64,000 bases of DNA, from assembly GCA_942491185.1 (NCBI GenBank), contig CALOAB010000004.1, forward strand, positions 327,190 to 391,189. The letters are read 5' to 3'. Positions 46,088-62,756 of the stretch are shown here, piece by piece. Origin of the DNA: an uncultured Alphaproteobacteria bacterium (GTDB lineage Bacteria; Pseudomonadota; Alphaproteobacteria; Geminicoccales; Geminicoccaceae). A program made the position numbers and the translations under genes. The notes beneath the pieces were generated by a model. The model saw only the letters and a list, made by a program, of their open reading frames with translations, searched no databases and was not told where the DNA came from. Position 1 is the stretch's first letter. The number at the start of each line of letters is the position of its first letter.

Positions 46088-47242
46088 TTGGCAACCACCC
46101 CGTCCCGTCGGTTCTTCGGCGTCGGCACGCGATTGAACGAGGTCGCCGGCTGGCTGCTGCTGGTGCTGCTCGGCCTGGGCTGCATCGTCGTGCTCCGGCC
46201 GTTCTTCCCGTCTTTGCTCTGGGCCACCATCCTGGTCTTCTCGACCTGGCCGCTGCACCAGCGGCTGAAGGCGCTGCTCGGCGGCCGCAACCTGCCCGCC
46301 TCGATGCTGATGACGCTGGTCCTGGCCGCAGCACTGATCGTGCCGACGGCGCTGCTCGCCAATGCGCTCGCCGAGACCGCCGAGGATGCCATCATGCAGC
46401 TCCGGCATCACTTCCCGGCCGACGGCACAGGTTTCGCCACACTGCCGGCCTGGATCGCCGACCTGCCGCTCATCGGCGGCCTCTTGGCCAATCTCTGGCG
46501 GGGCCTCGTCACCAACACCGGTGACCTGCTCGGCACGCTCCTGCCCTACGTGGCGCCGCTGCGCGACGCCGCGATCCGCGGCGGGCTCGGCATCGGCCGC
46601 GGCATCATCGAGCTCGCCGTCAGCGTGCTGGTCGCCTTCTTCCTCTACCGCGACGGCGCCCTTGCCGCCGAGCTGCTGCATCGTTCGGTCGGCAGTGTCG
46701 TCGGCGAGCGGGCGAAGCACCTGATCGGCGTCGCCGCCGGCACCATCCGCAGCGTCGTCTACGGGGTCATCGGCACCGCCATGATCCAGGCGATGCTGGC
46801 GCTGTTCGGCTTCTGGCTCTTGAGCGTGCCGCAGCCCTTCCTGCTCGCCACCTGCGTCTTCGTCCTCGGCCTCTTCCCGGTGGCCGGCTCATCGCTGGTC
46901 TGGATTCCGGTGATCATCTGGCAGCTGATGACCGGCCAGCTTATCGCCGGCATCATCATGGCGGTCTATGGCGCCTTGATCATCGGCGGCGTCGACAACT
47001 TCCTGAAGCCCTACCTGATCAGCCGCGGCAGCCGGATGCCGTTCCTCCTGGTCTTCTTCGGGGTCATCGGCGGGGTCATGACCTTCGGCATCCTGGGGCT
47101 CTTCCTCGGCCCGATGCTGCTGGCGCTCGGCCTGGCGCTCACCCGTGAATGGCTGGAGATGCAGGCCGCCAGCCAGCAGCTCGCCAGCGCCGGTGAATTG
47201 GAACAGTTCGAAGAAGCGCCGCGCGACAACAGGCAAAATTGA
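46088..47242 (+). CDS. AI-2E family transporter (PerM-like)
   Basis: 384 aa, about 8 TM helices, conserved GGVDNFLKPYLI and FGILGLFLGP. Non-ATG start. Confidence 0.85.
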   Translation: MATTPSRRFFGVGTRLNEVAGWLLLVLLGLGCIVVLRPFFPSLLWATILVFSTWPLHQRLKALLGGRNLPASMLMTLVLAAALIVPTALLANALAETAEDAIMQLRHHFPADGTGFATLPAWIADLPLIGGLLANLWRGLVTNTGDLLGTLLPYVAPLRDAAIRGGLGIGRGIIELAVSVLVAFFLYRDGALAAELLHRSVGSVVGERAKHLIGVAAGTIRSVVYGVIGTAMIQAMLALFGFWLLSVPQPFLLATCVFVLGLFPVAGSSLVWIPVIIWQLMTGQLIAGIIMAVYGALIIGGVDNFLKPYLISRGSRMPFLLVFFGVIGGVMTFGILGLFLGPMLLALGLALTREWLEMQAASQQLASAGELEQFEEAPRDNRQN

Positions 47243-47317: not shown

Positions 47318-49580
47318 ATGCCCGAGATCTCCGCGTCGAGCCCAGCCAGCGAGGCCGCCCCGCGTTGGCCGTTCTTCCGCGACCAGCCGAGCCGAATCGA
47401 GCTCGGGCCCCGTCAGGGTCACGAGCCGAGCACCCTGCCGCCGGTCAAGATCTTCCTCGGCACCGAGGAAGCGCAGTATCGGGCCGAGCGCATCTTCTTC
47501 TACTCCATCGAGAAGGTGCGCGACCCCGCCCGCACTTATGAAATCTACCTGATGAAGAACGTGCACGGCTTCGACCGGTCGAAGTGGCGGACGGGCTTCA
47601 CCAATTATCGCTACGCCATCCCGGAGTGGGCCGGCGGCAGCGGCCGGGCGATCTACAACGACGTCGACCAGATCTACCTCGCCGACCCTGCCCTGCTCTT
47701 CGACCTCGAGATGGGCAATCACGGCTACCTCGCGATCTCCGCCAAGGACACCTCGGTCATGCTGATCGATTGCGGGCGGATGGTCGATCTCTGGAACACC
47801 AAGACCGCGGCGACCCTGGGCAAGCACGCGCTGATCGACAAGCCGTCGTCGACGCCCGGGCTCTGGGGCGAGCTCGACGGCCACTGGAACGCCCGCGACC
47901 AGGAATATGTCGAGGGCCGCACCAAATGCCTGCACTACACGGCCCTGCACCAGCAACCCTGGCAGCCCACGCCGGAGGCCTTCTCCTACCACCCGAACCC
48001 GCTGGCCTATGTCTGGCACGATCTGGAGCGTGGCGCCGACGCCGAAGGCTACCAGGTGTTCACAAGAGAAGCCCCGAGCCCCGACTTCGCCGCCACGCTC
48101 GCCTTGGCGAATGGCAGCGACGAGCCGGCACCCATACCAGGCCCACTCGCTGCGAAGCTGGCCCGGGATCTGGCAGTCGCCGACGTGCTGGCCGTGCACC
48201 TGCCGGGTCAAGCGCCGGACGCGACACTGCCCGGTGACCTCGTGACCCGCGGGCTGGCGATCGACGGCACCGACACGCATTGGCCCGAGGAAGCGGCCGA
48301 TGCGGTGGTGGCGCCCAACCTGCTGATGGCGCTGCCGCCGGCCGACCTGCCCTGGCTGCTGGACCGATTGTTCACCGCCGCTCGCAAGCTCGTCCATCTC
48401 GACGCCACAGGGATAGCGCCGGATGGTCTCGGCAGTGCCGTGTGGTGGCGCCAGCGCGTCGAGGAGATCGCCGCTCGCCACCCGGGCAAGAGCTGGTCGC
48501 TGACGGTGGCCGACAAGGGAGCACCGATCCCCGGCACCATCCGCCACTTCACCATGCGCAGCCACGACCTGCCGGCAGACGGCACGACCTTGGTGCTGCT
48601 CGACGGTCAGACCGGCAAGAACGGCGAGGTGCGGGCGCTGGGCCGTGCCCTAGCCGACGGGCTCGGGCTCGACTGCACGGAGAAGAGCTGGCGAGAAGCG
48701 CCGACGGACAACATCATGGCACCTTGGCCAACCGTCATCGTCGCCGCCGGCAGGCGCTCCGCCAATGTGGCGCTCGAGATCAAGGCAAAGAACGGTGGTG
48801 CCACGCGGGTCGTGCAGCTCGGAACCACGGGCCTGCCGCTCGAGCGCTTCGACCTGGTCGTCGCCAACCCGGCCGAGCGCCTGCCTTTTCGCCCCAACAC
48901 GACGCAGATCACGGCCCCCTTGCAGCCCGCCAATGGGCACCAGGCGGCGGCCGGCGACCATCACGTCCTGGTCATCGGCCCGAGCGCCCAGCCGTTTCGC
49001 CGCAAGACCGAGGACCTGGCCAAGCTCGCCCGAGCCTTCGTCGAGCGGCCCGAGGCACCCAAGGCCGTCTGCTTCCTGGCCGGCGTCTCGGCACAGGATC
49101 GCGCCACCGTGCTGGCCGCCACGGGTGCCGATCACCGAGCTCGTCGATGACGATCTGCAAGCCGCCATCGACAAGGCGGCCCGCCTCTACGCCACCGGCG
49201 AGGATGGCCAGACCCTCACCCGGCTGTGTGCCAGCGGCAAGCCGGTGACGCTGCTGCCATTGCCCTACTGGTATGACGGGATTCCCGGCAACAAGCTGGT
49301 GCGCAGCGCCTTGACGCTCGTGATCGGTGGCGGAACGAGCTATCGCGGCACGCCGCACCAGCAGCATCTGCTGGCTCAGTTCGTCGATGGGCTGATCGTC
49401 CGCGGCTGGACCAGACTCCCTGTGGATCCCGCACGCCTGCATCGCTCGCTGATCGCGCGCGGCCTCCTGCATCCGCTCGACGAGACCGAGCCCATGGCCT
49501 CGCCGCACCCACTCGACGACCTCGAGCGGGTGACAGCGTCGGTCCGCAGCCTCTTGACCCGAGTGCCAGAAGCCGCCTGA
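47318..49580 (+). pseudogene. GT8-like glycosyltransferase / ELM1-family fusion protein, frameshifted inside the ELM1 domain
   Basis: N-terminus: IFLGTEEAQ...YNDVDQIYLADP (GT8-like DxD). C-terminus: LVLLDGQTGKNGEVRALGRALA...VIVAAGRRSANVAL...RFDLVVANP (ELM1-like). At the GGG run 49123-49125 the frame changes and the domain continues (PITELVDDD...YATGEDGQTLTRLCASGKPVTLLPL) to the stop at 49580. Confidence 0.7.
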
Positions 49581-49721
49581 TCACGGTCCATGAGCTACTC
49601 GATTTGGGCGTTGCCGGCACGCCACTCCACGGGCCGCGAGCCCGCCGTGGTCTTGCCGTCGTGCCCTCGAGTCACTAGCTACAGAAGGTCGTTAACGGCA
49701 TCCAATAATTGGTAGTAGAAC

Positions 49722-50483
49722 ATGCTGACCTCCTGGGGACCTTGGAGCAACAAGGCCTATCACCTCGACAAGATGAGCCTGGGTGAACTGATTCGCGCCT
49801 TCTTCACCCATTACTCGATCCAGGCCTATCTGGTGCTGGCGACGCTGGCGATTGCCGTCTCGCTGCTGCTGATGACCAGCTTCTGGCAGCCGCTCATGGC
49901 CGCCATCGTGACCGCAGCACTCTACCCCCTGGTCGAGTATCTGGTGCACCGCTTCCTCTTGCACTCGACCTTCATGTTCAAGCACCGCTCGACCGCCAAG
50001 GTCTGGAAGCGGATCCACTACGACCATCACCAGAACCCGCACGACCTCTCGGTGCTGTTCGGTGCGCTCTACACGACGCTGCCGACCATAGCACTGATCG
50101 CCCTGCCGCTGGGGTGGCTGGTCGCCGGCCCGTCCGGCGCCTTCGCCGCGTTCGCTGCCGCCTGCATCGTGTTTTGCGGCTACGAGTTCGTCCACTGCGT
50201 CCAGCATCTGCCGTTCACCCCAAGCCTCGGCTGGCTACGCAACCTGAAGAAGCGGCATCTGGCCCACCACTTCCACAACGAGCACGGCAATTTCGGCATC
50301 ACCAGCAATGTCTGGGATCACGTCTTCGGCACGTTCTACGCCCAGCCGAAGGACCAGCCGAAGAGCGCCACCGTGCACAATCTCGGCTACACCAGCGACG
50401 CCCGCGCGCAATGGCCGTGGGTGGCGGAGCTATCGGCCGACGACGACACCTACGCCATCCGTCGCCGCCGCCGCGCCGCCTGA
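49722..50483 (+). CDS. fatty acid hydroxylase / sterol desaturase family protein
   Basis: 253-aa membrane protein with histidine boxes HRFLLH, HYDHHQNPHD and HLAHHFHNEH. Confidence 0.8.
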   Translation: MLTSWGPWSNKAYHLDKMSLGELIRAFFTHYSIQAYLVLATLAIAVSLLLMTSFWQPLMAAIVTAALYPLVEYLVHRFLLHSTFMFKHRSTAKVWKRIHYDHHQNPHDLSVLFGALYTTLPTIALIALPLGWLVAGPSGAFAAFAAACIVFCGYEFVHCVQHLPFTPSLGWLRNLKKRHLAHHFHNEHGNFGITSNVWDHVFGTFYAQPKDQPKSATVHNLGYTSDARAQWPWVAELSADDDTYAIRRRRRAA

Positions 50484-50505
50484 ACTCGGCAAGACGGAGC
50501 ATGGC

Positions 50506-51657
50506 GTGGTGAGCCAGAGGCCAAGCTCCGTAGCACTGCAATCCATCCACGATCGCGCCGACCTCAAGGCGTTCATCGAGAGCACACGCGCGATCTATGC
50601 GGATGATCCCTGCTGGGTGCAGCCGCTCACGCTCGAGCGCCTGGACCATCTGAACCCGAAGAAGAACCCGTTCCTCAAGGACATCGAGGCGGCCTACTGG
50701 CTCGTGCTGTTCGATGGCCGCCCGGTCGGCCGCATCTCCGCCCAGGTCAACAAGGCGCATCTCGAGCGCCACCAGGATGCCACAGGCCATTTCGGCTTCA
50801 TCGAGGCGATCGACGACGAGGAGGTGTTCGGCCTCCTGATCGACACCGCCGCTACCTGGCTTCGCCTGCGCGGCATGGAGCGGATGGCCGGGCCGTTCAG
50901 CCTCTCGATCAACGACGAGACCGGCACGCTGCTGAGCGGCTTCGACACACCGCCGCAAATGATGATGCCGCACGGCCAGCCGCATTACGACCGGCGGCTG
51001 CATGAGCAGGGCCTGGTCAAGGCCAAGGACCTCATCGCCTTCCGCATCGATGCCCAAGAGCCCTTCCCACGCGCCGCGTCGCGGCTCATCGAACGGACAC
51101 GAAAGACCGGCGGCCTGACGATCCGACCGCTCGACACCAGCCGGTTCGGCCAGGAGATCGCGCTGATCTGCGACATCTTCAACGACGCCTGGTCGGATAA
51201 TTGGGGCTTCATTCCCTTTGGCGATGCCGAGGCCCAGTATCTGGCGAAGTCGATCCGGCCGCTGGTCAACGGCAGCAATTTCGCGATCGCCGAGCTCGAC
51301 GGCGAGCCCGTCGCCATGACCGTCACCCTGCCCAACCTCAACGAGATGATCGCCGATCTCGACGGCCGGCTCTTGCCCTTCGGCTGGGCCAAGCTGCTCT
51401 GGCGGCTCAAGGTCACTGGCGTCAAGAGCGGGCGGATGCCGCTGATGGGTCTGCGCAAAAGCTGGCAGGGCACGCTCAAGGGCACAGCCGCTGCGATGGG
51501 CGTCATCGAGACCGTGAAGACCTACCACGCCGGCCGCGGCGTGCTCGAGGGCGAGCTGAGCTGGGTGCTGGAGGACAATCAAGCCGTCCAGCACATGATC
51601 GCGGCCGTGGGTGCTGTCCCCTACAAGACCTACCGAGTCTACGAGAAAGCGATCTGA
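50506..51657 (+). CDS. GNAT-fold acyltransferase-like protein of unknown specificity
   Basis: About 383 aa from GTG 50506 (GGAG 7 nt upstream). A conserved-looking soluble protein (FIEAIDDEEVF...GPFSLSINDETG.L..GF...P...MPH...YY...). The family name is not securely recalled. Confidence 0.6.
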   Translation: MVSQRPSSVALQSIHDRADLKAFIESTRAIYADDPCWVQPLTLERLDHLNPKKNPFLKDIEAAYWLVLFDGRPVGRISAQVNKAHLERHQDATGHFGFIEAIDDEEVFGLLIDTAATWLRLRGMERMAGPFSLSINDETGTLLSGFDTPPQMMMPHGQPHYDRRLHEQGLVKAKDLIAFRIDAQEPFPRAASRLIERTRKTGGLTIRPLDTSRFGQEIALICDIFNDAWSDNWGFIPFGDAEAQYLAKSIRPLVNGSNFAIAELDGEPVAMTVTLPNLNEMIADLDGRLLPFGWAKLLWRLKVTGVKSGRMPLMGLRKSWQGTLKGTAAAMGVIETVKTYHAGRGVLEGELSWVLEDNQAVQHMIAAVGAVPYKTYRVYEKAI

Positions 51658-51672
51658 CATGGCCCTGGCGCT

Positions 51673-52479
51673 GTGACCGGGGCGGAGCTCACGACCCTCG
51701 TGCTCGCCGGCGAGCGCGCCGAAGGCGATCCGATGGCCAGGGCCGCCGGTGTTGCGCTCAAGGCGATGCTGCCGGTGGCCGGCCAGCCGATGCTGGCACG
51801 GGTCGTGGGAGCACTCCGCGCGACGCCCTCGATCGGCCGCATCGTGGTCAGCATCCCGCGTCCGGCGCCGGCCGAGGAGCTCGGCGTCGAGGCGATCATG
51901 ACCGAGGCGTCGCCGAGCCTGTCGGTCTTGGCCGCCATCGACCAACTGCCGAGCCCGCTGCTCGTCACCACCGCCGATCATGCGCTGCTGACGCCGGAGA
52001 TCGTCCAGCGCTTCGTCGATCTGGCCACTGCCACCGACGACGCCGATCTCATCGTCGGCATGGTCGAGCGCGCGGTAATCGAGCGCCTCGTGCCCGAGAC
52101 CCGGCGGACCTATTGGCGGTTCAAGGGCGGTGCCTATTCCGGTGCCAACCTCTTCTTGCTCAAGACCCCGCGCGCCAGGACAGCCGTCGCCTTCTGGCGC
52201 CGGGTCGAGACCCAGCGCAAGCAACCATGGCGGATCGTCCGTGCCTTCGGGGCGAAGCTGCTGCTCGGCTATCTGTTGGGCCGGTTGTCGCTGGATGAGG
52301 CGATGGAGCGGGCGTCCGACCGGCTCGGCTGTCGCGTCCGGGCCGTGACCCTGCCCTTTGCGGAGGCCGCGATCGACGTCGACAAGCCGGCCGACCTCGC
52401 CCTGGTCGAGCGCCTGCTCCTGGATCGCCAGGACCATCCAGATGGCCAGCAACCAGCAGCCGAGCCGGCCCGCCCATGA
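51673..52479 (+). CDS. MobA-like NTP transferase (nucleotidyltransferase) family protein
   Basis: LVLAGERAEGDPMA....KAMLPVAGQPML at the N-terminus, plus LVTTADHALL. Confidence 0.7.
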   Translation: MTGAELTTLVLAGERAEGDPMARAAGVALKAMLPVAGQPMLARVVGALRATPSIGRIVVSIPRPAPAEELGVEAIMTEASPSLSVLAAIDQLPSPLLVTTADHALLTPEIVQRFVDLATATDDADLIVGMVERAVIERLVPETRRTYWRFKGGAYSGANLFLLKTPRARTAVAFWRRVETQRKQPWRIVRAFGAKLLLGYLLGRLSLDEAMERASDRLGCRVRAVTLPFAEAAIDVDKPADLALVERLLLDRQDHPDGQQPAAEPARP

Positions 52480-53465
52480 GTCTCATCGACCTCGCCCATA
52501 TCACCGACGTGCATCTCGGGCCGGTGCCCCGGGCGCATCTGGGTGAGCTGTTGAGCAAGCGGGCGCTGGGCTACCTCTCCTGGCACCGTCGCCGCCATCT
52601 TCTGCACCGGCAGAGCGTGCTGGACGCCCTGGCGGTGGATCTCGCCGCCGACCCGCCGGATCACATCGCGGTCACCGGCGACCTCGTCAATCTAGCACTA
52701 CCGGGCGAGTTCGAGCAGGCGGCGCGCTGGCTGGCAGCCACCGGCACAGCCGCCGAGGTGACCCTGGTGCCCGGCAATCACGATGCCTACACCGGCAAGA
52801 GCTACCGCCAGGGCTGGACCCGCTGGAGCGCCTACATGCAGGGCGACGGCCAGGCGGTTGGCGGCACGTTCCCCTTCGTCCGCGAGATCGGCCCAGGCCT
52901 CGTTCTCGTCGGCCTCTCGAGCGCCGTGCCGAGCCCCATCGGCTTCGCTTCGGGCCAGCTCGGGCCCACCCAGCTCCTGGCGCTGGACAAAGTCCTGGCC
53001 GAGCTCGGCGATGCCGGGCTTTGCCGGGTCGTCATGATCCATCATCCGCCGCTGGGGCCCCTGATCCGCCGCCGCCGCGCGCTGAAGGACGAGCTGGCGC
53101 TGCGCGTCGTGCTCGCCAGGCGCGGCGCCGAGCTGATCCTCGCCGGCCACCAGCACAGCTTCCTCCTGGGCACCCTGCCGGGCCCCGAGGCACCCGTACC
53201 GATCATTGCCGGGCCATCGGCCTCGCTCGTCCAGAGCCACCCGGAGGCCGGCGGCTATCTGCGCTACGCCATCGACCTTGCGGGCGACCGCCCGTCCATT
53301 ACACTGCAGCTTCGACGCTTCGATCCCACCAGCGGCGGCCTCGTGATCGAGCGAACCGGCCTGCTCGAGATTGCCGGCGACAGGCTCGCCATCCGGCCCA
53401 CGGACTGGCCGAAAAACAAGAGGGAGATCGCGTCCGCCGCAGCCGTCGGCGCCGGCGCCCGATGA
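52476..53465 (+). CDS. metallophosphoesterase
   Basis: Motifs HITDVHLG, VTGDLVN, GNHD, MIHHPP and AGHQH. ATGA overlap on both sides. Confidence 0.8.
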   Translation: MSLIDLAHITDVHLGPVPRAHLGELLSKRALGYLSWHRRRHLLHRQSVLDALAVDLAADPPDHIAVTGDLVNLALPGEFEQAARWLAATGTAAEVTLVPGNHDAYTGKSYRQGWTRWSAYMQGDGQAVGGTFPFVREIGPGLVLVGLSSAVPSPIGFASGQLGPTQLLALDKVLAELGDAGLCRVVMIHHPPLGPLIRRRRALKDELALRVVLARRGAELILAGHQHSFLLGTLPGPEAPVPIIAGPSASLVQSHPEAGGYLRYAIDLAGDRPSITLQLRRFDPTSGGLVIERTGLLEIAGDRLAIRPTDWPKNKREIASAAAVGAGAR

Positions 53466-54706
53466 CGTCCATGCTCGCGACAATCGACCGCTACCTCCTG
53501 GGTCAGGTCATGCGCCCGATGCTGGCCGCAATTCTGATCACGCTGCTCGCCATGCTGGCCGAGCGGGCGCTGCGCGTCATCGATCTGGTCCTCGGCTGGC
53601 GCGGCTCGCTCGCCATCGTCGTCGAGATGATGAGCTACCTCATCCCCCACTACATGGTGTTCGCGCTGCCGGCAGCGCTCTTCTTGGGCATCATGCTCGC
53701 CATTGCGCGGCTGTCCAAGGAAGCCGAGGTCGACGCCATGCGCGCTGCCGGGATCGGCCTGGCGCGGATCACCCGGCCGCTGATGCTCCTCGCCTTCGTC
53801 GTGCTGGTCCTGCACCTGGTGCTGGTGAGCCACCTGCAGCCCTATGCGCGCTACGCCTACCGCGCCGCCGCCTTCGCCATCACCAACGCCTCGTTCCAGA
53901 CCCTGCTGCGCCCGGGCCAGTTCATCACGCTGGGTCAGACCACCTACCGGGTGGACCGGCTGAGCGAGGACCGCGAGCAGTTCGAAGGCATCTTCCTGTT
54001 CTCAGAGGCCGACGCTGACGGGACCATCGTGATCACCGCCGAAGACGGCCGGATCGAGGAGCAGGGTGTGCTGGTGCCGCTGCTGCTGCACCTGGAGAAC
54101 GGCGTCCAGCAATTTGTGCCGCGGCCGGTCGAGGGCGAGAATGGGGGCACATCCTCGAGCAACGGCACGCCGCCACTGACACTCCGCTTCGGCAGCTTCA
54201 CCAGCGACCTCTCGGGCAGCGAGCCAGAGGCGTTCCGGCCACGCGGCGACCACGAGCGCGAGCTGACGATCCCGGAGCTGTTCGGCTTCATCGGCAAGCC
54301 CATCGAGCTCCTGCCCGAAGAAATCAAACCCTGGGAAATCGAGTCCGAGCTCTCGGCCAGGCTCGTGCGCAACCTGTCGATCCTCTTCGTGCCCCTGTTT
54401 GCCCTGCCGCTCGCCCTCTCGCCACGCCGCGCCAAGCGATCTTACGGCTTTCTCATCGGCGTCATCATCGTGGTCGGCTACAACCAGATCATCAGCACCG
54501 GCGAGTCGCTGGCCGACAACAATGAGCTGTCGTCGCTGATCGGCATCTGGCTGCCGTTTGTCGCCTTCGGCCTGGCGACCACCGCCTTCTTCATCCATTC
54601 CGCCAGGCGGGTTCCCGATCCCGGCAAGTCCTCGCTCTTGGGCACGACCATCGATGCGACGGTCAGCATGATCGCCCGACGCCTGCCCTGGCGGGCCGCC
54701 TCGTGA
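53462..54706 (+). CDS. lptF: LPS export ABC transporter permease LptF
   Basis: About 414 aa. IDRYLLGQVMRPMLAAILITLLAML start, six TM helices, and a large periplasmic loop between TM3 and TM4. Confidence 0.85.
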   Translation: MTSMLATIDRYLLGQVMRPMLAAILITLLAMLAERALRVIDLVLGWRGSLAIVVEMMSYLIPHYMVFALPAALFLGIMLAIARLSKEAEVDAMRAAGIGLARITRPLMLLAFVVLVLHLVLVSHLQPYARYAYRAAAFAITNASFQTLLRPGQFITLGQTTYRVDRLSEDREQFEGIFLFSEADADGTIVITAEDGRIEEQGVLVPLLLHLENGVQQFVPRPVEGENGGTSSSNGTPPLTLRFGSFTSDLSGSEPEAFRPRGDHERELTIPELFGFIGKPIELLPEEIKPWEIESELSARLVRNLSILFVPLFALPLALSPRRAKRSYGFLIGVIIVVGYNQIISTGESLADNNELSSLIGIWLPFVAFGLATTAFFIHSARRVPDPGKSSLLGTTIDATVSMIARRLPWRAAS

Positions 54707-55803
54707 AGCTGCTGACCCTGTATCTCAACCGTATCGTGCTGGTCCGCCTCACCGTGGTGACGATCGCCATGGTGCTGTTCGCCATGCTCTTCGACCTGAT
54801 GGATGCCTCGGACGATCTGATCCGCCGGGACGGCCCGGCGATCGTCACGTTCAGCCACTACTTCGTGCTGCGCTTTCCGAGCGTGCTCAACGAGATCCTG
54901 CCCTTTGCAGCGCTGGTCGGCAGCCTGTTTGCCGCCGCCGAGCTGATGCGCAACGGCGAGCTGACCGTGTTCTGGGCGTCGGGCATCTCGCCTTTGGGCG
55001 TGGTGCTGCGCCTCTTGCCGATCTGCCTTCTGGTCCTCGGCATCAAGCTCGCCAATGACGACATGCTGGTGCCCGGCACGGTGCAGGAGCTGCGCAGCTG
55101 GCAGGTCGGCTTCTTCAGCGGCGGCGTCGAAGGCTTCGTCGGCGACAATCTCTGGGTCGCCAGCGACACCCGCTTCATCCGCCTGCCGCGCCTCGACTGG
55201 GGCAAGACCGAGGTGGACGACGTGCTGATCCTCGAGCGCGACGACGTCGGCAACCTGGTCGAGCGAACGACCGCTGCGCACGCCGTCCTCGAGCCCGGCG
55301 CCTGGCGGCTCTCCGGCGTCGAGCGCAGCCGCGTCGGCGACGGGCGCATCGTCCGCGAGGACGAAGCCGTGTTCGAGAACACGATCGACCTCGAGCGGCT
55401 GCGCGTCGCCGCCAACCCGCCGCAGGAGGTGGCGCTGGCCGACCTCGTCGATATCGTCCGCAATGACGGCTACGGCGTCGTCACCACCCAAGGCCATGTC
55501 ACCGCCATCTACCACCGCCTGTTCGGCGCAGCGCAGCCGATGCTGATGATCATGCTGGCCTTCAGCCTGGCCCGCCGGGTCACCCGGCAAGGCGGTGTCG
55601 CCGGACTCTTCATCAAGGGCATCACGCTCGGCTTCGGCTTCGTGATCCTGAGCGGCCTGACGCTGGCGCTGGCCGAGGCCGGTTTTCTCGGCCCACTGGT
55701 CGCTACCGCAGGCCCGATCCTGCTCCTGGCAGCAATCGTCGTCCTCCTGCCGCTCCGCGAGGAACGCGGCCGATTCTTGCGCTTCAGGCCACGCCACGCC
55801 TGA
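54703..55803 (+). CDS. lptG: LPS export ABC transporter permease LptG
   Basis: 366 aa with a GTGA overlap with lptF. LTLYLNRIVLVRLTVVTIAMV start and the same YjgP/YjgQ topology. Confidence 0.85.
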   Translation: MKLLTLYLNRIVLVRLTVVTIAMVLFAMLFDLMDASDDLIRRDGPAIVTFSHYFVLRFPSVLNEILPFAALVGSLFAAAELMRNGELTVFWASGISPLGVVLRLLPICLLVLGIKLANDDMLVPGTVQELRSWQVGFFSGGVEGFVGDNLWVASDTRFIRLPRLDWGKTEVDDVLILERDDVGNLVERTTAAHAVLEPGAWRLSGVERSRVGDGRIVREDEAVFENTIDLERLRVAANPPQEVALADLVDIVRNDGYGVVTTQGHVTAIYHRLFGAAQPMLMIMLAFSLARRVTRQGGVAGLFIKGITLGFGFVILSGLTLALAEAGFLGPLVATAGPILLLAAIVVLLPLREERGRFLRFRPRHA

Positions 55804-56759
55804 TGCGTATCGGCCTGTTGAGCAACACCAGGAGCGAGCGCAACCGCAAGGGCATGACCGGCCTGGCGGCGGTGATCGACCAGGCGCCGGAGATCCTGCA
55901 TCGCCCGTTCCGTCCCGAAGAGGGCTTCGGCCCGCCCTTGCGCGCCATGGCCGAGGCCGGCGTCGAGCTCGTCGTGGTCAATAGCGGCGACGGCACGGTG
56001 CACGGCGTGCTCACCGAGCTGCTCGCTCACCAGCCCTTCGCCACCGTGCCGCGACTCGCCATCCTGCCGCGCGGCATGGCCAATATGAGCGCCGCCGATT
56101 GCGGGCTGAAAGGGTCCGGGCCGGACACCCTGGAGCGACTGCTGACCGCCTGCAGGCGCGGCACGCTCGACGACCACCTGGCCCCGCGCCACGTGCTCAA
56201 GGTCGACTATGCCGATGACCAGGTGGCGCCACGCGGCATGTTCATGGGTGCTGCCGGCATCGTCGACGTCATCAATCACGTCAAAGGCAAGCTGCACAGC
56301 CGCGGCGTCAAGGGCGAGTGGAGCCACGCCGCAGCCATTGTCGGCCTGCTCACCGGGGTGGTCACCAAGGGCTACGCGGCGCTCGGGCTCGAGCCGCACC
56401 AGGTCGGCGTCGCCGCTGACGGGATGCCGCGCCAGGACGAGCGGTTGCTGATCCTCATCGCCACCAGCCTGGAGCGGTTGGTGCTGCGCTCGCGGCCGTT
56501 CTGGGGCACTCGAGGCCGGCCCATCCGCCACATGCGCATCGGCTACGAGCCCAAGCGCCTGATCAGACTGGCGCCGCGCATCCTCTACGGCGACGACGGC
56601 CGAAAGCTGCCCGAGAACGACTACCGCAGCGGCGGCGCAGCCCGGCTCGACCTCTGGCTCGACGCCCCCTTTACGATCGACGGCGAGTTCTTCACACCGA
56701 GCCCTGACCGGCCGGTGCGCATCACCGCCGACGAAATCGTCCGCTTTGTCAGGCTCTAG
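55803..56759 (+). CDS. diacylglycerol-kinase-catalytic-domain (lipid kinase/YegS-like) protein
   Basis: IGLLSNTRSERN...VVVNSGDGTVHGVLTELL...LAILPRGMANMSA is a DAGK_cat/NAD-kinase-fold signature. TGATG overlap with lptG. Confidence 0.75.
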   Translation: MRIGLLSNTRSERNRKGMTGLAAVIDQAPEILHRPFRPEEGFGPPLRAMAEAGVELVVVNSGDGTVHGVLTELLAHQPFATVPRLAILPRGMANMSAADCGLKGSGPDTLERLLTACRRGTLDDHLAPRHVLKVDYADDQVAPRGMFMGAAGIVDVINHVKGKLHSRGVKGEWSHAAAIVGLLTGVVTKGYAALGLEPHQVGVAADGMPRQDERLLILIATSLERLVLRSRPFWGTRGRPIRHMRIGYEPKRLIRLAPRILYGDDGRKLPENDYRSGGAARLDLWLDAPFTIDGEFFTPSPDRPVRITADEIVRFVRL

Positions 56760-57651
56760 CCAAGTGCCCGCTGAACCAGCCACCCTCGAGCAGCTGATCG
56801 AGTCCGAGCTCGACGTACCCATCCCCGACGCCGTCGCGGCCATCGCCACGGCGGCGCGCGCCCGGCACGGCCAAGGTGTCTCGGCCATCCTCTTCTACGG
56901 CAGCTGCTACCGCGACGGCATCGTCGAGGACCGGCTGGTCGACCTCTATCTCCTCGCCGACGACTACCGCTCAGTGCACACCAATCGGATCAGCGCTCTC
57001 GCCAACCGGCTGGTGCCGCCCAATGTCTACTATCTCGAGACCGAAAGCGGCGGGCAAACCGTGCGCTGCAAATACGCGCTGCTCACCATGGCCCAGCTCG
57101 CGGCCAAGGTTTCGATGACCACGGACAACCCCTATTTCTGGGCCCGCTTCGCCCAGCCCACCGGCCTCGTCTGGTGCCGGGATGCGGCCACCAGGGAACG
57201 CGTCATCGACATCATGGGCAAGGCCGTGCGCACCACCTTCGCCGCGGCCCGGGCGCTCACCCACGACATGGCGGCGTCCGAGGCGCTCTGGACCATGGTC
57301 TTCATGGAGACCTACCGGACCGAGCTTCGGGCCGAGAAGCCCTACCGCGCCGCCGAAATCTACCAGAGCGGGGCCAAGCGCTACGACCGGATCACCAAGG
57401 CGCTCATCGCCGAAGGCATCAAGCCGCGCCCGCGCTCCTGGGCCGTGACCCGCCGCAACGGCAAGGCGCTCTCGATCCTTCGCCTGATCAAGGCCGCCTT
57501 CACCTTCACCGCCGGCGCCGACTACCTCGCCTGGAAGATCGAGCGCCACTCCGGCACCCACATCGAGCTCACCGACTGGCAACGCCGCCACCCGATCCTC
57601 GCCTCGCCGCCGATCCTCTGGCGCCTGCTCCGCAGCAAGGCGGTGCGCTGA
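56746..57651 (+). CDS. Tam41/Mmp37-like nucleotidyltransferase-fold protein (tentative)
   Basis: ILFYGSCYRDG...DLYLLADDY...NVYYLE......RCKYALLTMAQL......NPYFWARFAQPTGLV parallels the eukaryotic Tam41 pattern (YGSGV...D.I..V....VY.N......KYGV.....L.....LY.AGRLQKPV). TTG start at 56746 or GTG at 56764. Confidence 0.5.
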   Translation: MSGSSQVPAEPATLEQLIESELDVPIPDAVAAIATAARARHGQGVSAILFYGSCYRDGIVEDRLVDLYLLADDYRSVHTNRISALANRLVPPNVYYLETESGGQTVRCKYALLTMAQLAAKVSMTTDNPYFWARFAQPTGLVWCRDAATRERVIDIMGKAVRTTFAAARALTHDMAASEALWTMVFMETYRTELRAEKPYRAAEIYQSGAKRYDRITKALIAEGIKPRPRSWAVTRRNGKALSILRLIKAAFTFTAGADYLAWKIERHSGTHIELTDWQRRHPILASPPILWRLLRSKAVR

Positions 57652-57668: not shown

Positions 57669-59606
57669 TTAGAGCCCAGCCTTGCGAAAACCATCGAGCA
57701 GGTGACGCTGGTGCTCCGCACCGGTGACGCTGCTGGCGTAGATCTCACTATCGAAGAACGGACTGACCCGGCGCAATTGCACGGCCGAGCTTTCGGCTGC
57801 ATCGTTCTCGCCTAGCTGGGCGTGCGCCGCCGCCAGAATGGCATGTGGGGCTGGATCCTCGTCGAAGTTGCCAGTGAAGCGATCGAACAGAGCAATGACG
57901 TCGGCGTAGCGACCGGCAAGGTAGTAGGCCTGCCCGAGGTCGACGAGCCACCAGGCGAGCGGGTGGGGGTCGAGCTCCAGCGCGAGCTCCAGCGACCCGA
58001 CCGCCGCCTCCGGCCGGCCGGAATTGAGCATGATATTGCCGCGAATCCCATGGCTGAGCGCATCGTTGGGATTGAGCGTCAATGCACGGTCGATGACCGC
58101 TTCGGCCGTTGCGAAGTCTCGATGAAACGCGAGTATGAAAGCGCGCAACGCTTGGCCGGATGCGTTGCGATCATCGAGCTCGATCGCCCGGGACGCCGAA
58201 TCTTGTGCCTGATCGACGGCACGATGCGGCCACTGCGTCCACCCCCAGAGGAAATCGTTCAGCTGGGTCCAGCCGAGACCGACATACGCATCGGCATAGC
58301 CCGGATCGATGGCAATCGCCCGCTCGAAGAACGACCGCGCGTCGTAGTTGGCGCCGCGCTCGACCCGGCGCAGCAGGCTGCGGCCCCGCAGCACGAGGTC
58401 GTAGGCCCCAAGGCTCTCGGTGGGCCTGGCCAGCGCGTCTGCCTGCTCCAACCGGGTCACGCGCACCGCGAGCGCGGCCACCACCTGCTGCGTGATCCGG
58501 TCCTGGACCGCAAAGATATCCTCGAGCTGGTCATCGAAACGCTCGGACCAGAGGAGAACCCCCCGCTGGGCGTCGGTCAGCTCGACGGAGACGCGCAGCT
58601 GATCGCCCGACTGGCGGATCGTGCCGCCGACGACGTAGCGTGCGCCCAGCTCCTCAGCCAGCGCATCGAGCTCGACGGCGCGTCCCTTGAAGGGCGCAAC
58701 AGCGCTCCACGAGAGCACCAGCAGCCCAGAAAAGCGCCCCAGCGCCCGGATGATGTCCTCGCTCACCCCGTCGCTGAAGTAATCCTGAACGCCAGCACCG
58801 CTTTGGTCCCTGAAGGGAAGAACGGCGATCGTCGGCTTGCCGATGCCGGCCACGACTGTGTCGGCGCCACTCTTCCCGTCCGAGATCGCGACGTCACCGC
58901 CTGTCGGCAGCCAATTCGGCGCCAGCGCGACCACGGCGCCAAGAGCCAGAACCGCCGCGGTCGCGGCCAGGGCCACGCGCCATGTCTTTCGACGGCCTGG
59001 AGCCGGTCGTCGGCTGCGGCTCTCGCCCGCCCCTCCGGCAACGGCATAGACCCGGATCGGCTCGGCGATGTTCTTGACGTGGCACAAGCCTCGATCGGTG
59101 AAACCCACATCGAGCTTGCCGGCCGCTTGATCGCGCACCGCACCGGCAACCACGATTCCGCCGGGCTCGGCCAGCGCTTCGAGCCGCGCCGCTACATTCA
59201 CACCGGTACCGAAGATATCGTCGCCGTCGACGATGACATCGCCGAGATTGAGCCCGATCCGAAACAAGAGCTGCTCTTCCGGCGGCACACCGGTATTGCG
59301 CTCGGCAATGGCCCGCTGCATGGCGATCGCCGCAGTGAGCCCCTCCGTCACGCTCGTGAACGTTGCCAGCACGGCATCACCGGCGGTGCCGATCAACCTG
59401 CCGCCATGCTTGTCGAGAGCCGCATCGATCAATTGGCGCGACGCCATCAGCCGCGCATGCGTGCCGGCCTCGTCGAGCTCCATCAGCCGGCTGTAGCCGG
59501 CGACATCGCCATGCAGAACGACCGCGAGCCGGCGCATCGGGCCCTCAGGCCCAGCGCCGCCTGCATGCTCTGCTTCAGCCATCACCGCAGTCTCGCTGAT
59601 CGACAC
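57669..59606 (-). CDS. membrane-anchored class III adenylate/guanylate cyclase with periplasmic TolB-N-like + TPR module (copy 1)
   Basis: Catalytic core LAVVLHGDVAGYSRLM, GTAGDAVLATF and GTGVNVAARLE. One TM (WRVALAATAAVLALGAVVALAP). KPTIAVLPFRDQSG...YFSDGVSEDIIRALGRFSGLLV, then TPRs. Alternative ATG start at 59582. Confidence 0.85.
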   Translation of the reverse strand: MSISETAVMAEAEHAGGAGPEGPMRRLAVVLHGDVAGYSRLMELDEAGTHARLMASRQLIDAALDKHGGRLIGTAGDAVLATFTSVTEGLTAAIAMQRAIAERNTGVPPEEQLLFRIGLNLGDVIVDGDDIFGTGVNVAARLEALAEPGGIVVAGAVRDQAAGKLDVGFTDRGLCHVKNIAEPIRVYAVAGGAGESRSRRPAPGRRKTWRVALAATAAVLALGAVVALAPNWLPTGGDVAISDGKSGADTVVAGIGKPTIAVLPFRDQSGAGVQDYFSDGVSEDIIRALGRFSGLLVLSWSAVAPFKGRAVELDALAEELGARYVVGGTIRQSGDQLRVSVELTDAQRGVLLWSERFDDQLEDIFAVQDRITQQVVAALAVRVTRLEQADALARPTESLGAYDLVLRGRSLLRRVERGANYDARSFFERAIAIDPGYADAYVGLGWTQLNDFLWGWTQWPHRAVDQAQDSASRAIELDDRNASGQALRAFILAFHRDFATAEAVIDRALTLNPNDALSHGIRGNIMLNSGRPEAAVGSLELALELDPHPLAWWLVDLGQAYYLAGRYADVIALFDRFTGNFDEDPAPHAILAAAHAQLGENDAAESSAVQLRRVSPFFDSEIYASSVTGAEHQRHLLDGFRKAGL

Positions 59607-59627: not shown

Positions 59628-59732
59628 GACCTTAGCACATGCTGCGACACTTTATCCTGTCGTCGTTGTATCTTTCACCGTCTCGCGGGTCGCGCGTTGC
59701 TTCAGATCGTCCGCAGACGGCGAGGAGTGCCC

Positions 59733-60197
59733 ATGTCCCGCACGCTCAACCTGATACTCGCGGCCGCGCTCTTTTTGGCAAGCATCACGGCATGGGTGCC
59801 GGCGGCGCAGGCCGACGAGGCGATCAACACCACCGCCGACAATGTCGCCATCCTCGGCTACGACGCGGTTGCCTATTTCACGGAATCCCAGCCACGCCAG
59901 GGTGATCCCCAATTCGAGCATGTCTGGCAGGATGCCCGCTGGCGTTTCGCCTCGGCCGAGCACCGCGACCTGTTTGCCGCCGACCCGCGCCGCTACGCGC
60001 CGCGTTATGGCGGTTTCTGCGCCGGCGCCATGGCGCTGGGCTGGAAAGCGCCGATCGACCCCGAAGCCTGGACGATCATCGACGACCGGCTCTATCTGGC
60101 CTTCAACAAGCCGGGTATCGACGAGTTCGCCACCGAGCCGGATACCAACATCGCCAAGGCCGACGCCAACTGGGAGCAGCTCGGCCAGACCGAATAG
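59733..60197 (+). CDS. secreted YHS-domain-like protein (copy 1)
   Basis: 154 aa, GAGGAG upstream, signal peptide ending AAQA. LGYDAVAYFT...W.FAS.EHRDLF..DP..YAPRYGGFCAGAMA. C-terminus NWEQLGQTE. Confidence 0.75.
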   Translation: MSRTLNLILAAALFLASITAWVPAAQADEAINTTADNVAILGYDAVAYFTESQPRQGDPQFEHVWQDARWRFASAEHRDLFAADPRRYAPRYGGFCAGAMALGWKAPIDPEAWTIIDDRLYLAFNKPGIDEFATEPDTNIAKADANWEQLGQTE

Positions 60198-60246: not shown

Positions 60247-62163
60247 TCAAAGACCAGCCTTGCGCAAGCCCTCCAGCACATGGCGACTTTGCTCGGGCGT
60301 GCCGAGCAGGCTCGCGAACGCCTCGGCATTGAAGAACGGAGCCGTCCGGCGGAGCCGATCGACTGCCGCGGCCGCTTGATCGCCCTGGTCGAGCTGCGCA
60401 TGTGAAGCGGCGAGGATGGCGTGCCACAGCGGCTCCTCACGGACCTCGTCGTCGAACCGATCGATCAGCGCGATCGCATCGGCGTAGCGGCCTTCCAGGT
60501 AGTAGGCGCCGACAAGGCTCTGCAGCGAATCGACCGTCGGATTCGGATCGATCTGCAGCGCCAGCTCCATCGACGAACGCGCCACATCGGGGCGACCGGT
60601 GAAGATCGCCACGCTCGCGCGGATCGCCAGGCTCTCGGCGCTGTTGGGATTGAGGTCGATCGCCCGATCGATCTCGCGCTCGGCGCCCGCAAAGTCGCCC
60701 TTGAACTTCAAGACATCGGCCTGCAGCGCATGGGCCGAAGCGTTCTGCGGATCGAGTGCGATCGCGCGCGATGCTTCCGCGTCGGCCGCAGCCAAAGCGC
60801 GATCGGGCCACTGCGTCCAGCCGAACTTGATATCGTTGAGGTAGGTCCAGCCGCGCTCGACATGCGCATCGGCATAGTCCGGATCGATGGCAATGGCGCG
60901 CTCGAACATCTCCCGCGCCTCGAAATTCGTGACACGCTCGAGGCGACGCAGCAGGTCTCGGCCGTGCAGCACGAGATCATAGGCGCCGAGGCTCTCAGTG
61001 GGCTTGGCGAAGGACTGGGCTTGCTCCGCCTGCGTGACCCGAATGGCGAGCGCCGCCACCAGCTGCCGGGTGATCCGATCCTGCAGCTCGAAGACATCGG
61101 CCAGCTCCTCGTCGAAGCGCTCGGACCAGAGCAGCACACCGCCCTCGGCGTCGCTCAGCTGGACATTGACCCGGAGCCGGTCGCCCGCCCGCTGGATCGA
61201 TCCGCTCACGACGTAGCGGGCACCCAGCTGCGCCGCCAGGTCGTCGAGCGGCGCCGGTCCGTCCTTGTAGGGCGCAACCGCGCTCCAGGAGAGCACCAGC
61301 AAGCCCGAGAAACGGCCGAGCGCGCTGATCACCTCCTCGGTCACGCCGTCGCTGAAATACGCCTCGGCCGCCTCGCCGCTACGATCCTCGAACGGCAGCA
61401 CCGCGATCGTGGGCTTGCCCGCAGGGGCAACGGCCTCGGCGGGTGCCTCGTCGGCCGGCGCCACCACCTCCGATTCGCCGACCAGGCCCAACGGCCCAAA
61501 GGTCAGGAATGCACCGAGCCCGCCCACGACGATCACCGCGAGCACGGCTGCCGGCACCAGCATTCGGCGGCGCGGCCGGCGGCGACGCGCACCGCTCGAC
61601 GACGTGCCGACGGCGAAGACGCGAACGGGCTCCTCGATGTTCTTCAGGCTGTGCGCGCCCAAATCCTCGAACGCGACATCGAGCGAACCGGCGCGCTTGC
61701 CGGCGAGCTGGTCGTGCACCGCGGCTGAGACGGCAATGCCGCCGGGCTCCGCCAGCGCCTCGATACGCGCCGCCACATTCACGCCGTTGCCGAACACGTC
61801 GTCACCATCGACGATGACGTCGCCGAGATTGAGCCCGATGCGAAACGCCAGCTGCTGGTCGGCCGGCAACGCCGCGTTGCGCTCGGCGAGTGCGGCCTGG
61901 ATCTCGACCGCCGCCGTCAGCGCCTCGACGACGCTCTCGAAGATGGCGAGCACGGCATCGCCCGCGGTCCCGACGACGCGGCCACGATGCCGAACGAGCC
62001 GCTCGTCGATGACCTGTCGACAGGCCATCAGCCGGGCGTGCGTGCCGGCCTCGTCGATACCCATGAGCCGACTGTAGCCAGCGACATCGGCATGCAGGAT
62101 GGCTGCCAGCCGCCGCGTTGTGCTGCCGCCGGAAATCTGGTCCACAGAACCGGTTTCAACCAC
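60247..62163 (-). CDS. membrane-anchored class III adenylate/guanylate cyclase with periplasmic TolB-N-like + TPR module (copy 2)
   Basis: Same architecture as copy 1 (LAAILHADVAGYSRLM, GTAGDAVLAIF, GNGVNVAARIE, one TM, KPTIAVLPFEDRSG...YFSDGVTEEVISALGRFSGLLV, TPRs). Collinear similarity along the whole length. Confidence 0.85.
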   Translation of the reverse strand: MVETGSVDQISGGSTTRRLAAILHADVAGYSRLMGIDEAGTHARLMACRQVIDERLVRHRGRVVGTAGDAVLAIFESVVEALTAAVEIQAALAERNAALPADQQLAFRIGLNLGDVIVDGDDVFGNGVNVAARIEALAEPGGIAVSAAVHDQLAGKRAGSLDVAFEDLGAHSLKNIEEPVRVFAVGTSSSGARRRRPRRRMLVPAAVLAVIVVGGLGAFLTFGPLGLVGESEVVAPADEAPAEAVAPAGKPTIAVLPFEDRSGEAAEAYFSDGVTEEVISALGRFSGLLVLSWSAVAPYKDGPAPLDDLAAQLGARYVVSGSIQRAGDRLRVNVQLSDAEGGVLLWSERFDEELADVFELQDRITRQLVAALAIRVTQAEQAQSFAKPTESLGAYDLVLHGRDLLRRLERVTNFEAREMFERAIAIDPDYADAHVERGWTYLNDIKFGWTQWPDRALAAADAEASRAIALDPQNASAHALQADVLKFKGDFAGAEREIDRAIDLNPNSAESLAIRASVAIFTGRPDVARSSMELALQIDPNPTVDSLQSLVGAYYLEGRYADAIALIDRFDDEVREEPLWHAILAASHAQLDQGDQAAAAVDRLRRTAPFFNAEAFASLLGTPEQSRHVLEGLRKAGL

Positions 62164-62216: not shown

Positions 62217-62291
62217 TGTCCCGGCAGCAACTGCAATTTATGCAAGTACGCCAAGTGATTTGGTAGGCTTAACAGATTCTTGGAGTCGCGT

Positions 62292-62756
62292 ATGGCCCTC
62301 GCCCCGACGAACCGCGCCCTGGCCGCCGTCTTCGGCGCCGCTCTCGGCATGGCAACCCTCGTCGTCCAGGCTGGCGAGGCGGTCAACACCTCGCCCGACG
62401 ATGTCGCCATCCAGGGCTATGACCCGGTCGCCTACTTCACCGAATCACGCCCGGTAAAGGGCGACCCCGCCATCGAGGAAGAGTGGCAGGGTGCCCGCTG
62501 GCAGTTTGCCACGGCCGAGAACCGCGCCTTGTTTTCCGAGAACCCCGACCAGTACGCCCCGCGCTACGGCGGCTTCTGCGCCGGCGGCGTTTCGCTCGGT
62601 CGCAAGGCACCGATCGACCCGGAGTCATGGGTGATCGTCGACGGCAAGCTCTTCCTCGGCGGCTCGAGCAACGCCATCGACTACTTCACCACCGATGGCG
62701 AGGACCGGATGGCCAAGGCCGACACCAACTGGGAGCAACTCGGCCAGACCGAGTGA
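62292..62756 (+). CDS. secreted YHS-domain-like protein (copy 2)
   Basis: 154 aa from ATG 62292 (TGGAG upstream) with a signal peptide. QGYDPVAYFT...YAPRYGGFCAGGVS. C-terminus NWEQLGQTE, identical to copy 1. Confidence 0.75.
   Translation: MALAPTNRALAAVFGAALGMATLVVQAGEAVNTSPDDVAIQGYDPVAYFTESRPVKGDPAIEEEWQGARWQFATAENRALFSENPDQYAPRYGGFCAGGVSLGRKAPIDPESWVIVDGKLFLGGSSNAIDYFTTDGEDRMAKADTNWEQLGQTE

Follow-up and report, generated by a model that had tools for sequence, protein, structure and literature searches.

In Caulobacter crescentus, a sphingolipid locus spanning CC_1152-CC_1168 (CCNA_01210-01226) provides for ceramide phosphoglycerate (CPG, and CPG2 once a second phosphoglycerate is added) and also encodes LptF2, LptG2 and LptC2 (PMC11324152). 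Here we compare with this locus a block of nine plus-strand genes at positions 47318-57651 of a 64,000 nucleotide (nt) stretch of DNA, hereafter the window, from an uncultured alphaproteobacterium of the family Geminicoccaceae (assembly GCA_942491185.1, contig CALOAB010000004.1, positions 327,190 to 391,189); the G+C content of this 64 kb window is ∼68 %. On the strength of sequence comparison we consider it likely that the block is an operon for the head-group synthesis and export of an anionic sphingolipid, homologous to the Caulobacter CPG locus. In the first-pass annotation of this DNA the genes could not be assigned to any described pathway, a view that can be set aside, as the core genes have their counterparts in the Caulobacter sphingolipid locus. 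The pathway is most likely the one already described in Caulobacter, with the window carrying another lineage's copy of it and a distinct accessory set.

The published order of the Caulobacter genes begins with CC_1152, a nucleotidyltransferase now named CpgD and known as a cytidine triphosphate (CTP):phosphoglycerate cytidylyltransferase, followed by the MobA/CofC-like nucleotidyltransferase CC_1153, the bacterial ceramide synthase bCerS (CC_1154), second copies of LptG and LptF (CC_1155 and CC_1156), a HIT protein (CC_1157), a calcineurin-type phosphoesterase (CC_1158), the CDP-alcohol phosphotransferase CpgA (CC_1159), the ceramide kinase CpgB (CC_1160) and the Tam41-like protein CpgC (CC_1161; IPR015222), with spt and other ceramide genes from CC_1162 onward (PMC11324152). 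The biosynthetic genes have been defined genetically and biochemically (PMC9393093, PMC11324152, PMC10331486, PMC12275187). CpgB phosphorylates ceramide (PMC10331486), and in a cpgC mutant ceramide-1-phosphate accumulates and CPG is absent (PMC9393093). Conversion of CPG to CPG2 requires CpgA, CpgD and CC_1153, with a partial contribution from CC_1158 (PMC9393093, PMC11324152, PMC12275187). LptF2 and LptG2 are needed for sphingolipid transport, form a complex and bind LptB in pull-down experiments; their genes can be deleted only when the anionic sphingolipid is not made, and lptC2 is reported to be restricted to Caulobacter (bioRxiv 10.64898/2026.04.12.717747).

The correspondence between this locus and the window was drawn through a replicon of Roseomonas marmotae, identified in a protein search of a plasmid collection, whose RefSeq annotation follows the Caulobacter order from CC_1152 to CC_1166. 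Numbering the genes of the block from 1 to 9, seven consecutive genes match this replicon slot by slot. Gene 3 is 42 % identical (E 5e-96) to the 383 amino acid (aa) product of the CC_1154 (bCerS) slot, gene 4 is 52 % identical to the CC_1153-slot gene and has no match to the Roseomonas CpgD-like gene, and gene 5 is 47 % identical to the metallophosphoesterase in the CC_1158 slot. Genes 6 and 7 show 33 and 28 % identity, respectively, to the permeases of the Roseomonas locus, gene 8 shows 33 % identity to the DAGK-family gene in the CC_1160 slot, and gene 9 shows 41 % identity to the gene in the CC_1161 slot.

In order to gauge how widely this arrangement is kept, we scanned genomes with gene 9 and examined the best 80 species-level genomes, the counts given below being expressed out of the 62 or 68 loci with enough flanking sequence. 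None of these 80 loci comes from Caulobacterales. The nearest gene 9 belongs to an uncultured alphaproteobacterial metagenome-assembled genome (MAG; 91 % identity); Geminicoccaceae MAGs come next at 71-81 %, and among the more distant carriers are Arboricoccus, Marinimicrococcus, Aquibaculum, Fodinicurvata, Pelagibius, Aestuariivirga and many Rhodospirillales and Hyphomicrobiales MAGs. The kinase adjoins gene 9 in every one of the 62 loci, and LptF and LptG lie upstream of it in 54; the synteny check that had been proposed thus shows a conserved block, and the contrary prospect, that the flanking genes would not accompany lptFG elsewhere, is contradicted by the order kept in related loci. Two metagenomic relatives, in which gene 9 is 80 and 51 % identical, retain all nine genes in the order of the window, and genes 3-9 keep their order in different alphaproteobacterial families and orders as well as on a Pseudomonas plasmid. 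With dozens of species-level genomes sharing the block, chance adjacency can be rejected.

Directly downstream of the block, on the opposite strand, both metagenomic relatives carry genes for a ∼405 aa class I/II aminotransferase, an 80 aa PP-binding protein, an epimerase-family reductase and a 600 aa AMP-binding enzyme. By sequence this set is the known bacterial ceramide module, consisting of spt, a dedicated acyl carrier protein (ACP), cerR and an acyl-ACP synthetase, and a convergent spt-ACP-cerR-AMP-ligase module is found no more than 6 kb downstream in 57 of 68 loci. Two main kinds of locus can be told apart. A Caulobacter-like type (22/62) carries CpgA, a CpgD-like gene and a HIT gene, and a second type (29/62), which includes the relatives of the window, has none of these three within 10 kb and is marked by the hydroxylase, often the ELM1 fusion described below, and an AI-2E transporter upstream; the remaining 11 of the 62 are of other kinds. 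Used as tblastn queries, the CpgA and CpgD-like proteins of Roseomonas and Pseudomonas gave no match in the window or in the 29 loci of the same type, and did so in the 22 Caulobacter-like loci. Arboricoccus pini B29T1, Marinimicrococcus flavescens, Geminicoccaceae bacterium 1502E, Aquibaculum and Fodinicurvata are cultured organisms with a locus of the window type.

Within the window the nine genes are separated by very short or negative spacers, with the LptF/LptG pair inside the run. The first-pass annotation had counted ten consecutive plus-strand genes; the strand and the unbroken run stand, but the count does not, nine being listed. The start/stop overlaps that it reported are all present in the sequence, with ATGA at 52476-52479 and 53462-53465, GTGA at 54703-54706 and TGATG at 55801-55805. 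Pfam assigns domains to seven of the nine genes (Mito_fiss_Elm1, FA_hydroxylase, NTP_transf_3, Metallophos, LptF_LptG in two genes, and DAGK_cat), in agreement with the earlier labels of fatty-acid hydroxylase, metallophosphoesterase, lptF, lptG and DAG-kinase fold. The suggested profile searches thus bear out most of the block, but return nothing for genes 3 (∼50509-51657) and 9 (∼56764-57651), which have zero Pfam matches up to E ≤ 10 and zero NCBIfam matches; NCBIfam has no model for gene 1 either. Promoter-like and terminator-like sites within the block are not above shuffle expectation, and a scan of the whole window gave no Rfam family and no tRNA gene. The spacing, the lack of any internal promoter or terminator excess and the conserved order support the prediction of a single operon.

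Genes 8 and 9 are thus paired throughout the 62 loci. Gene 8 (55803-56759, plus strand; PF00781, E 2e-10) is a predicted CpgB-type ceramide kinase, with an ATP-binding motif, SGDG, that is a variant found in about a third of orthologues; the motif of Caulobacter CpgB is GGDG (PMC10331486). Gene 9 (56764-57651, plus strand) belongs to a family with more than 1600 homologues, for which a profile search gave 1466 clusters at 50 % identity. These homologues are 295-300 aa long, a length that fits a start at GTG 56764, 4 nt past the stop of gene 8, better than one at TTG 56746, so that a 14 nt overlap previously drawn at 56746-56759 is probably not real. The gene has no match to PF09139 (Tam41_Mmp37) even at E ≤ 10, and a sequence search of PDB chains gave no meaningful match. 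Its AlphaFold2 (AF2) model, with a predicted local distance difference test score (pLDDT) of 85.6, was searched with Foldseek, and the top three matches were Tam41 CDP-diacylglycerol (cytidine diphosphate-diacylglycerol) synthases (6ig4, 7ecd and 6ig2), followed by other nucleotidyltransferases. Together with a significant PF09139 match in one family member (P0468), this bears out the earlier description of the protein as Tam41-like, and the model and the Roseomonas homology support its assignment as a CpgC-type protein with a Tam41-like fold. Furthermore, a DAGK catalytic domain and a gene 9/CpgC-type domain are naturally fused in a 662 aa protein (P0513); by the Rosetta-stone argument, the kinase and the Tam41-like enzyme would therefore act in one pathway, at consecutive steps. 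As a separate observation, an invariant nucleotidyltransferase-like motif of the family reads G-S ... D60-L61-Y62; in many pol-beta-type nucleotidyltransferases the place of this tyrosine is taken by a second acidic residue.

Upstream of the kinase lie gene 6 (53462-54706, plus strand; PF03739, E 2e-58) and gene 7 (54703-55803, plus strand; PF03739, E 6e-52), for which the best PDB matches are LptF chains and LptG chains, respectively. Scored against the NCBI equivalog models, gene 6 reaches 196.8 bits with TIGR04407 (LptF), under the cut-off of 230, and gene 7 reaches 190.9 bits with TIGR04408 (LptG), under the cut-off of 240. Scores below cut-off are what would be expected of paralogues, and the pair occupies the place between metallophosphoesterase and kinase that it also holds in 54 of the 62 related loci. 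We interpret the two genes as LptF2 and LptG2, paralogues belonging to the sphingolipid locus. That no lptC2 accompanies them fits the reported Caulobacter-only distribution of that gene.

Gene 3 (50509-51657, plus strand) is predicted, through the Roseomonas locus, to fill the bCerS slot. Its homologues are labelled 'dATP pyrophosphohydrolase' or 'N-acetyltransferase' and one carries PF00583, which lends indirect support to the GNAT fold proposed in the first-pass annotation; the start given there, ATG 50308, would overlap gene 2 and does not stand, as GTG 50506/50509 yields a protein of homologue length (382 aa). The preceding gene 2 (49722-50483, plus strand) encodes a di-iron membrane fatty-acid hydroxylase, matching PF04116 with 70.6 bits (E 2e-19; gathering threshold 31) and showing the histidine boxes HRFLLH, HYDHH and HLAHHFH in its translation. 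The nearest solved relative is yeast Scs7p, a hydroxylase of the very-long-chain fatty acid of ceramide (E 8e-11), and 32 of 62 related loci have a hydroxylase of this type ahead of their core genes. From these matches, gene 2 is most likely a ceramide N-acyl 2-hydroxylase.

For gene 4 (51673-52479, plus strand), Pfam NTP_transf_3 (PF12804, E 3e-13) agrees with the earlier call of a MobA-like nucleotidyltransferase, and the best PDB match is the functionally uncharacterized nucleotidyltransferase TTHA0179 (E 3e-26). NCBIfam matches to CofC (TIGR03552, E 8e-4), IspD and MobA are weak and lie far below the family cut-offs, and the match to 7p97, a structure of 3-phospho-D-glycerate guanylyltransferase, is also weak (E 0.28). 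Given the CofC likeness, activation of a phospho-acid such as phosphoglycerate would fit a role of this CC_1153-type enzyme in forming the head group. Gene 5 (52476-53465, plus strand; PF00149, E 1e-12) is of the CC_1158 type, has GpdQ-type phosphohydrolases/phosphodiesterases and Rv0805 as its nearest solved relatives, and is probably a phosphodiesterase.

Gene 1 (47318-49580, plus strand) is a putative double glycosyltransferase whose reading frame is broken in the window. Three parts are predicted, namely a GT8-like domain at the N-terminus, an alpha/beta domain in the middle and an ELM1/GtrOC1 GT-B domain at the C-terminus, and its homologues, which carry the database name 'ELM1/GtrOC1 family putative glycosyltransferase', are intact proteins of 747-790 aa. 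Compared with these relatives, the window matches in one frame as far as residue ∼604 and from there on in the +1 frame, owing to an extra G at 49130 (GGTGCC[G]ATCACC; the window reads GGTGCCGATCACC where the closest relative has GGCGCCATCACC). The first frame ends at a stop at 49150; in the +1 frame, homology extends over 49131-49580, the C-terminal 149 codons. The GT8-like/ELM1 fusion described previously finds some support in its domains, and is not complete at 49150. In the AF2 model of a homologue with 76 % identity (P0129), the point of the break lies midway through the C-terminal half of the GT-B domain, and the frameshift removes the last ∼145 residues of this ELM1-type domain. The insertion site lies outside any homopolymer run, so a real pseudogenizing mutation, rather than a sequencing error, is possible; from the sequence, the extra base would be either a true mutation that inactivates the gene or a mistake of assembly.

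The domain assignments of gene 1 come from several sources. The PF06258 match scores 38.9 bits (gathering threshold 27) and covers only profile positions 38-105 of 304; the C-terminal half of the domain lies out of frame after 49130. Within the first 250 residues, a DxD motif (NDVD) and the sequence HYTxxHQQPW (H..QPW) are invariant in 28 homologues, although the N-terminal 420 aa have no Pfam match, GT8 included, at E ≤ 10. Foldseek with the P0129 model returned GT-B enzymes plus GlyE and WbbM, the TM-scores for the latter two being low with a multidomain query; GlyE and WbbM contain GT8 domains. A 780 aa ELM1/GtrOC1 protein in the sphingolipid cluster of the Pseudomonas IncP plasmid is 43 % identical to gene 1. 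We also considered gene 1 as a counterpart of CC_1167 and rejected this, as CC_1167 has IPR007554 (glycerophosphotransferase domain) and gene 1 has only PF06258 in Pfam. A literature search on ELM1/GtrOC1 together with sphingolipids found nothing relevant.

Taken in order, these assignments suggest a pathway. Spt, the dedicated ACP, the acyl-ACP synthetase and CerR, encoded outside the window, would make the long-chain base, which the bCerS-type product of gene 3 would N-acylate to ceramide, and the Scs7-like product of gene 2 might then hydroxylate the acyl chain. Gene 8 would convert ceramide to ceramide-1-phosphate, a reaction demonstrated for the Caulobacter CpgB enzyme. The product of gene 9 would process ceramide-1-phosphate, with transfer of cytidine monophosphate (CMP) to give CDP-ceramide as the chemistry favoured by analogy with Tam41. 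Genes 4 and 5 may elaborate the anionic head group, and an intact gene 1 would be expected to add sugars. Finally, LptF2 and LptG2 (genes 6 and 7), with the LptB of the cell, would move the lipid from the inner membrane toward the outer membrane. As the locus has no CpgA, CpgD or HIT gene and does have a hydroxylase and a double glycosyltransferase, its product is probably not CPG2; it would probably be a mono-phospho sphingolipid related to it, on which hydroxyl groups or sugars are possible.

Several points weigh against reading the block as a sphingolipid operon homologous to that of Caulobacter. Orthology to the characterized Caulobacter genes is transitive, the link running by way of the Roseomonas locus and the gene order in the literature, and no family or structure matches gene 3 directly (Pfam at E ≤ 10, NCBIfam, PDB chains). 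No spt, ACP, cerR or acyl-ACP synthetase gene lies within the 64 kb window, nor does the closest relative have the ceramide module within 10 kb downstream; with the module absent nearby, the supply of ceramide in the organism is therefore an assumption. Additionally, the second type of locus keeps CC_1153-type and CC_1158-type genes without CpgA and CpgD partners, a combination that, judged by gene content, the Caulobacter scheme does not explain. Lastly, CpgB phosphorylates diacylglycerol (DAG) too, in vitro.

The last of these points, together with the missing spt in the window and near the locus of the closest relative, is what favours a glycerolipid pathway, in which the kinase would make phosphatidic acid, the Tam41-like protein CDP-DAG, and LptFG-like permeases would export an unusual glycerophospho- or glycolipid. 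The known Tam41 reaction, phosphatidate plus CTP to CDP-DAG, would suit the fold of gene 9. This reading is nevertheless improbable when set against the bCerS-slot homologue inside the operon, the ceramide-type hydroxylase beside it and the spt gene adjacent in most relatives; furthermore, a Caulobacter cpgB mutant keeps phosphatidic acid levels unchanged (PMC10331486).

Slightly more doubtful still is a cluster for remodelling lipid A or the lipopolysaccharide (LPS) core, with a canonical LptFG pair embedded in it as the LPS exporter. The LptF_LptG Pfam matches are strong, the assignments to F and G agree with the solved LPS exporters, and the name ELM1/GtrOC1 derives from a lipooligosaccharide outer-core glycosyltransferase. 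Set against this, the block is linked to spt-ACP-cerR-aas in most relatives and has genes homologous to those in the slots of the ceramide kinase, CpgC and bCerS, the permeases score under the NCBI equivalog cut-offs, and no lpx, waa or kds gene was seen among the window open reading frames (ORFs) scanned. When an envelope lipid handled by LptFG was first proposed for this block, both a lipid A variant and a non-LPS outer-membrane lipid had been allowed; the second option is the one that stands, and the first is disfavoured by the spt module of the relatives and the sub-cut-off permeases. That the genes are mere neighbours of unrelated function, with overlaps reflecting a compact genome, as the equally tight and seemingly unrelated aldose epimerase, nitrilase-type hydrolase and dehydrogenase genes upstream might suggest, is scarcely credible given the order of genes 3-9 conserved across alphaproteobacterial families and orders and on the Pseudomonas plasmid, the kinase-CpgC fusion, and the shared cofitness and lipid phenotypes of Caulobacter mutants in the homologous genes (PMC11324152).

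If the block is indeed a sphingolipid operon, sphingolipid synthesis and the LptF2G2 export system would extend to Geminicoccaceae and related, mostly uncultured, alphaproteobacteria of soil and water; a literature search on Geminicoccaceae sphingolipids found nothing relevant. The accessory differences from Caulobacter would provide a natural comparison for the roles of CpgC, the CC_1153-type nucleotidyltransferase and the CC_1158-type phosphoesterase. For annotation, LptF and LptG of such loci should not be read as an LPS exporter, and neighbouring 'hypothetical protein' and 'dATP pyrophosphohydrolase' labels can be renamed. More tentatively, the Geminicoccaceae-type locus could make an undescribed complex sphingolipid by a route independent of CpgA and CpgD, for instance a 2-hydroxylated, glycosylated ceramide phosphate or phosphoglycerate. 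Were this so, the CC_1153-type nucleotidyltransferase and the metallophosphoesterase would serve the head group in a way that does not depend on CPG2 being formed, and an AI-2E family permease might be the missing flippase.

The permease in question is encoded directly upstream of the block (46088-47242, plus strand; PF01594, E 7e-39), as it also is in relatives with the same type of locus, whether close or distant (44-52 % identity in the distant ones). Because loci of the window type have no Wzx-like flippase, we regard the AI-2E transporter as a speculative candidate for a lipid flippase. The tightly spaced same-strand run to which the block belongs in fact starts at 43344, its first genes being an aldose epimerase, a carbon-nitrogen hydrolase (nitrilase-type), a 3-hydroxyisobutyrate-dehydrogenase-like gene and the AI-2E transporter. 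In other taxa an MsbA-like ABC exporter (ABC_membrane plus ABC_tran) is often found at the edge of the sphingolipid cluster (L003/L004 1-361; several further loci, positions 1-60) and may be the inner-membrane flippase there; the window cluster has no such exporter.

Variation in the content of these loci was also seen elsewhere. Six Geminicoccaceae-related loci (L029, L036, L038, L041, L042 and L071) carry a shorter block of bCerS, nucleotidyltransferase, kinase and CpgC followed by spt; no metallophosphoesterase or lptFG lies in between, and the export genes are therefore not always in the locus. On the IncP plasmid pPNP1 of Pseudomonas sp. JS425 (NZ_CP073662.1), the sphingolipid cluster lies beside a class 1 integron with sul1 and comprises spt, ACP, cerR, acyl-AMP ligase, nucleotidyltransferase, lptF, lptG, kinase, CpgC, metallophosphoesterase, ELM1/GtrOC1, CpgA and CpgD, with a bCerS homologue split by an IS5 element.

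Downstream of gene 9, on the other strand, are two paralogous adenylate-cyclase/TPR genes, and since the closest relative is arranged in the same way this is not an assembly artefact. With a third copy upstream of the block, three paralogous adenylate/guanylate-cyclase proteins lie around the cluster, all on the minus strand (57669-59606, 60247-62163 and 41464-43119) and all with TolB_N-like and TPR regions. A YHS-domain ORF (62259-62756, plus strand) follows the cyclase copy at 60247-62163 on the other strand, and tblastn against the closest relative revealed a second YHS-like copy at ∼59697-60197 (plus strand), after the first downstream cyclase copy. The downstream cyclase and YHS pair looks, from these sequences, like a tandemly duplicated module, which is present in the closest relative too. 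An ORF at 62803-63999 (minus strand), running off the end of the window, was considered as spt and rejected, being a PAS/cNMP/Crp-type regulator.

Compared with known enzymes, the putative C-terminal domain of gene 1 resembles the ELM1/GtrOC1 family in its PF06258 match and GT-B fold, and its putative N-terminal domain resembles GT8 glycosyltransferases in its DxD and GT8-like H..QPW motifs and its likeness to GlyE and WbbM; unlike either group, gene 1 fuses both in one protein of ∼750 aa with an extra middle domain, and this type is tied to sphingolipid loci (Geminicoccaceae and the Pseudomonas plasmid). Gene 2 shares with Scs7p/FA2H the PF04116 di-iron histidine-box domain, Scs7p being its best solved relative, but lacks the cytochrome b5 domain; in Caulobacter, acyl hydroxylation is the work of a different, DesA-type enzyme, CC_0202, unlike gene 2. 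Gene 4 has the MobA-like fold of the F420 phospho-acid guanylyltransferases CofC/FbiD and matches CofC weakly, but scores far below the cut-offs and has no F420 genes nearby. Tam41/Mmp37, the CDP-diacylglycerol synthase of mitochondria and Firmicutes, gives the best structural matches to gene 9, and both would act next to a lipid phosphate; in contrast, the identity is only 12-15 %, PF09139 does not match, and the presumed substrate of gene 9 is ceramide-1-phosphate, not phosphatidate.

At the level of whole systems, genes 6 and 7 share PF03739 with the LptB2FGC LPS exporter, matching its LptF and LptG chains, respectively, and the expected mechanism is alike, with LptB powering the removal of a lipid from the outer leaflet of the inner membrane. 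They differ from it in scoring under the equivalog cut-offs, in lying among sphingolipid rather than LPS genes, in a locus that has neither lptB nor lptC, and in their cargo, which would be a sphingolipid. From the Caulobacter locus the window differs in having no CpgA, CpgD, HIT protein, Wzx-like flippase or LptC2, in its gene order, in the ceramide module not being near the block, and in the addition of a GT8-like/ELM1-GtrOC1 double glycosyltransferase and an Scs7-like hydroxylase. What the two have in common is the core: the putative bCerS type, the CC_1153 type, the CC_1158 type, the LptF/LptG pair, the DAGK-fold CpgB and the Tam41-like CpgC all stand together in the block, and in most relatives of the window locus the spt-acp-cerR-aas module is adjacent, as in Caulobacter.

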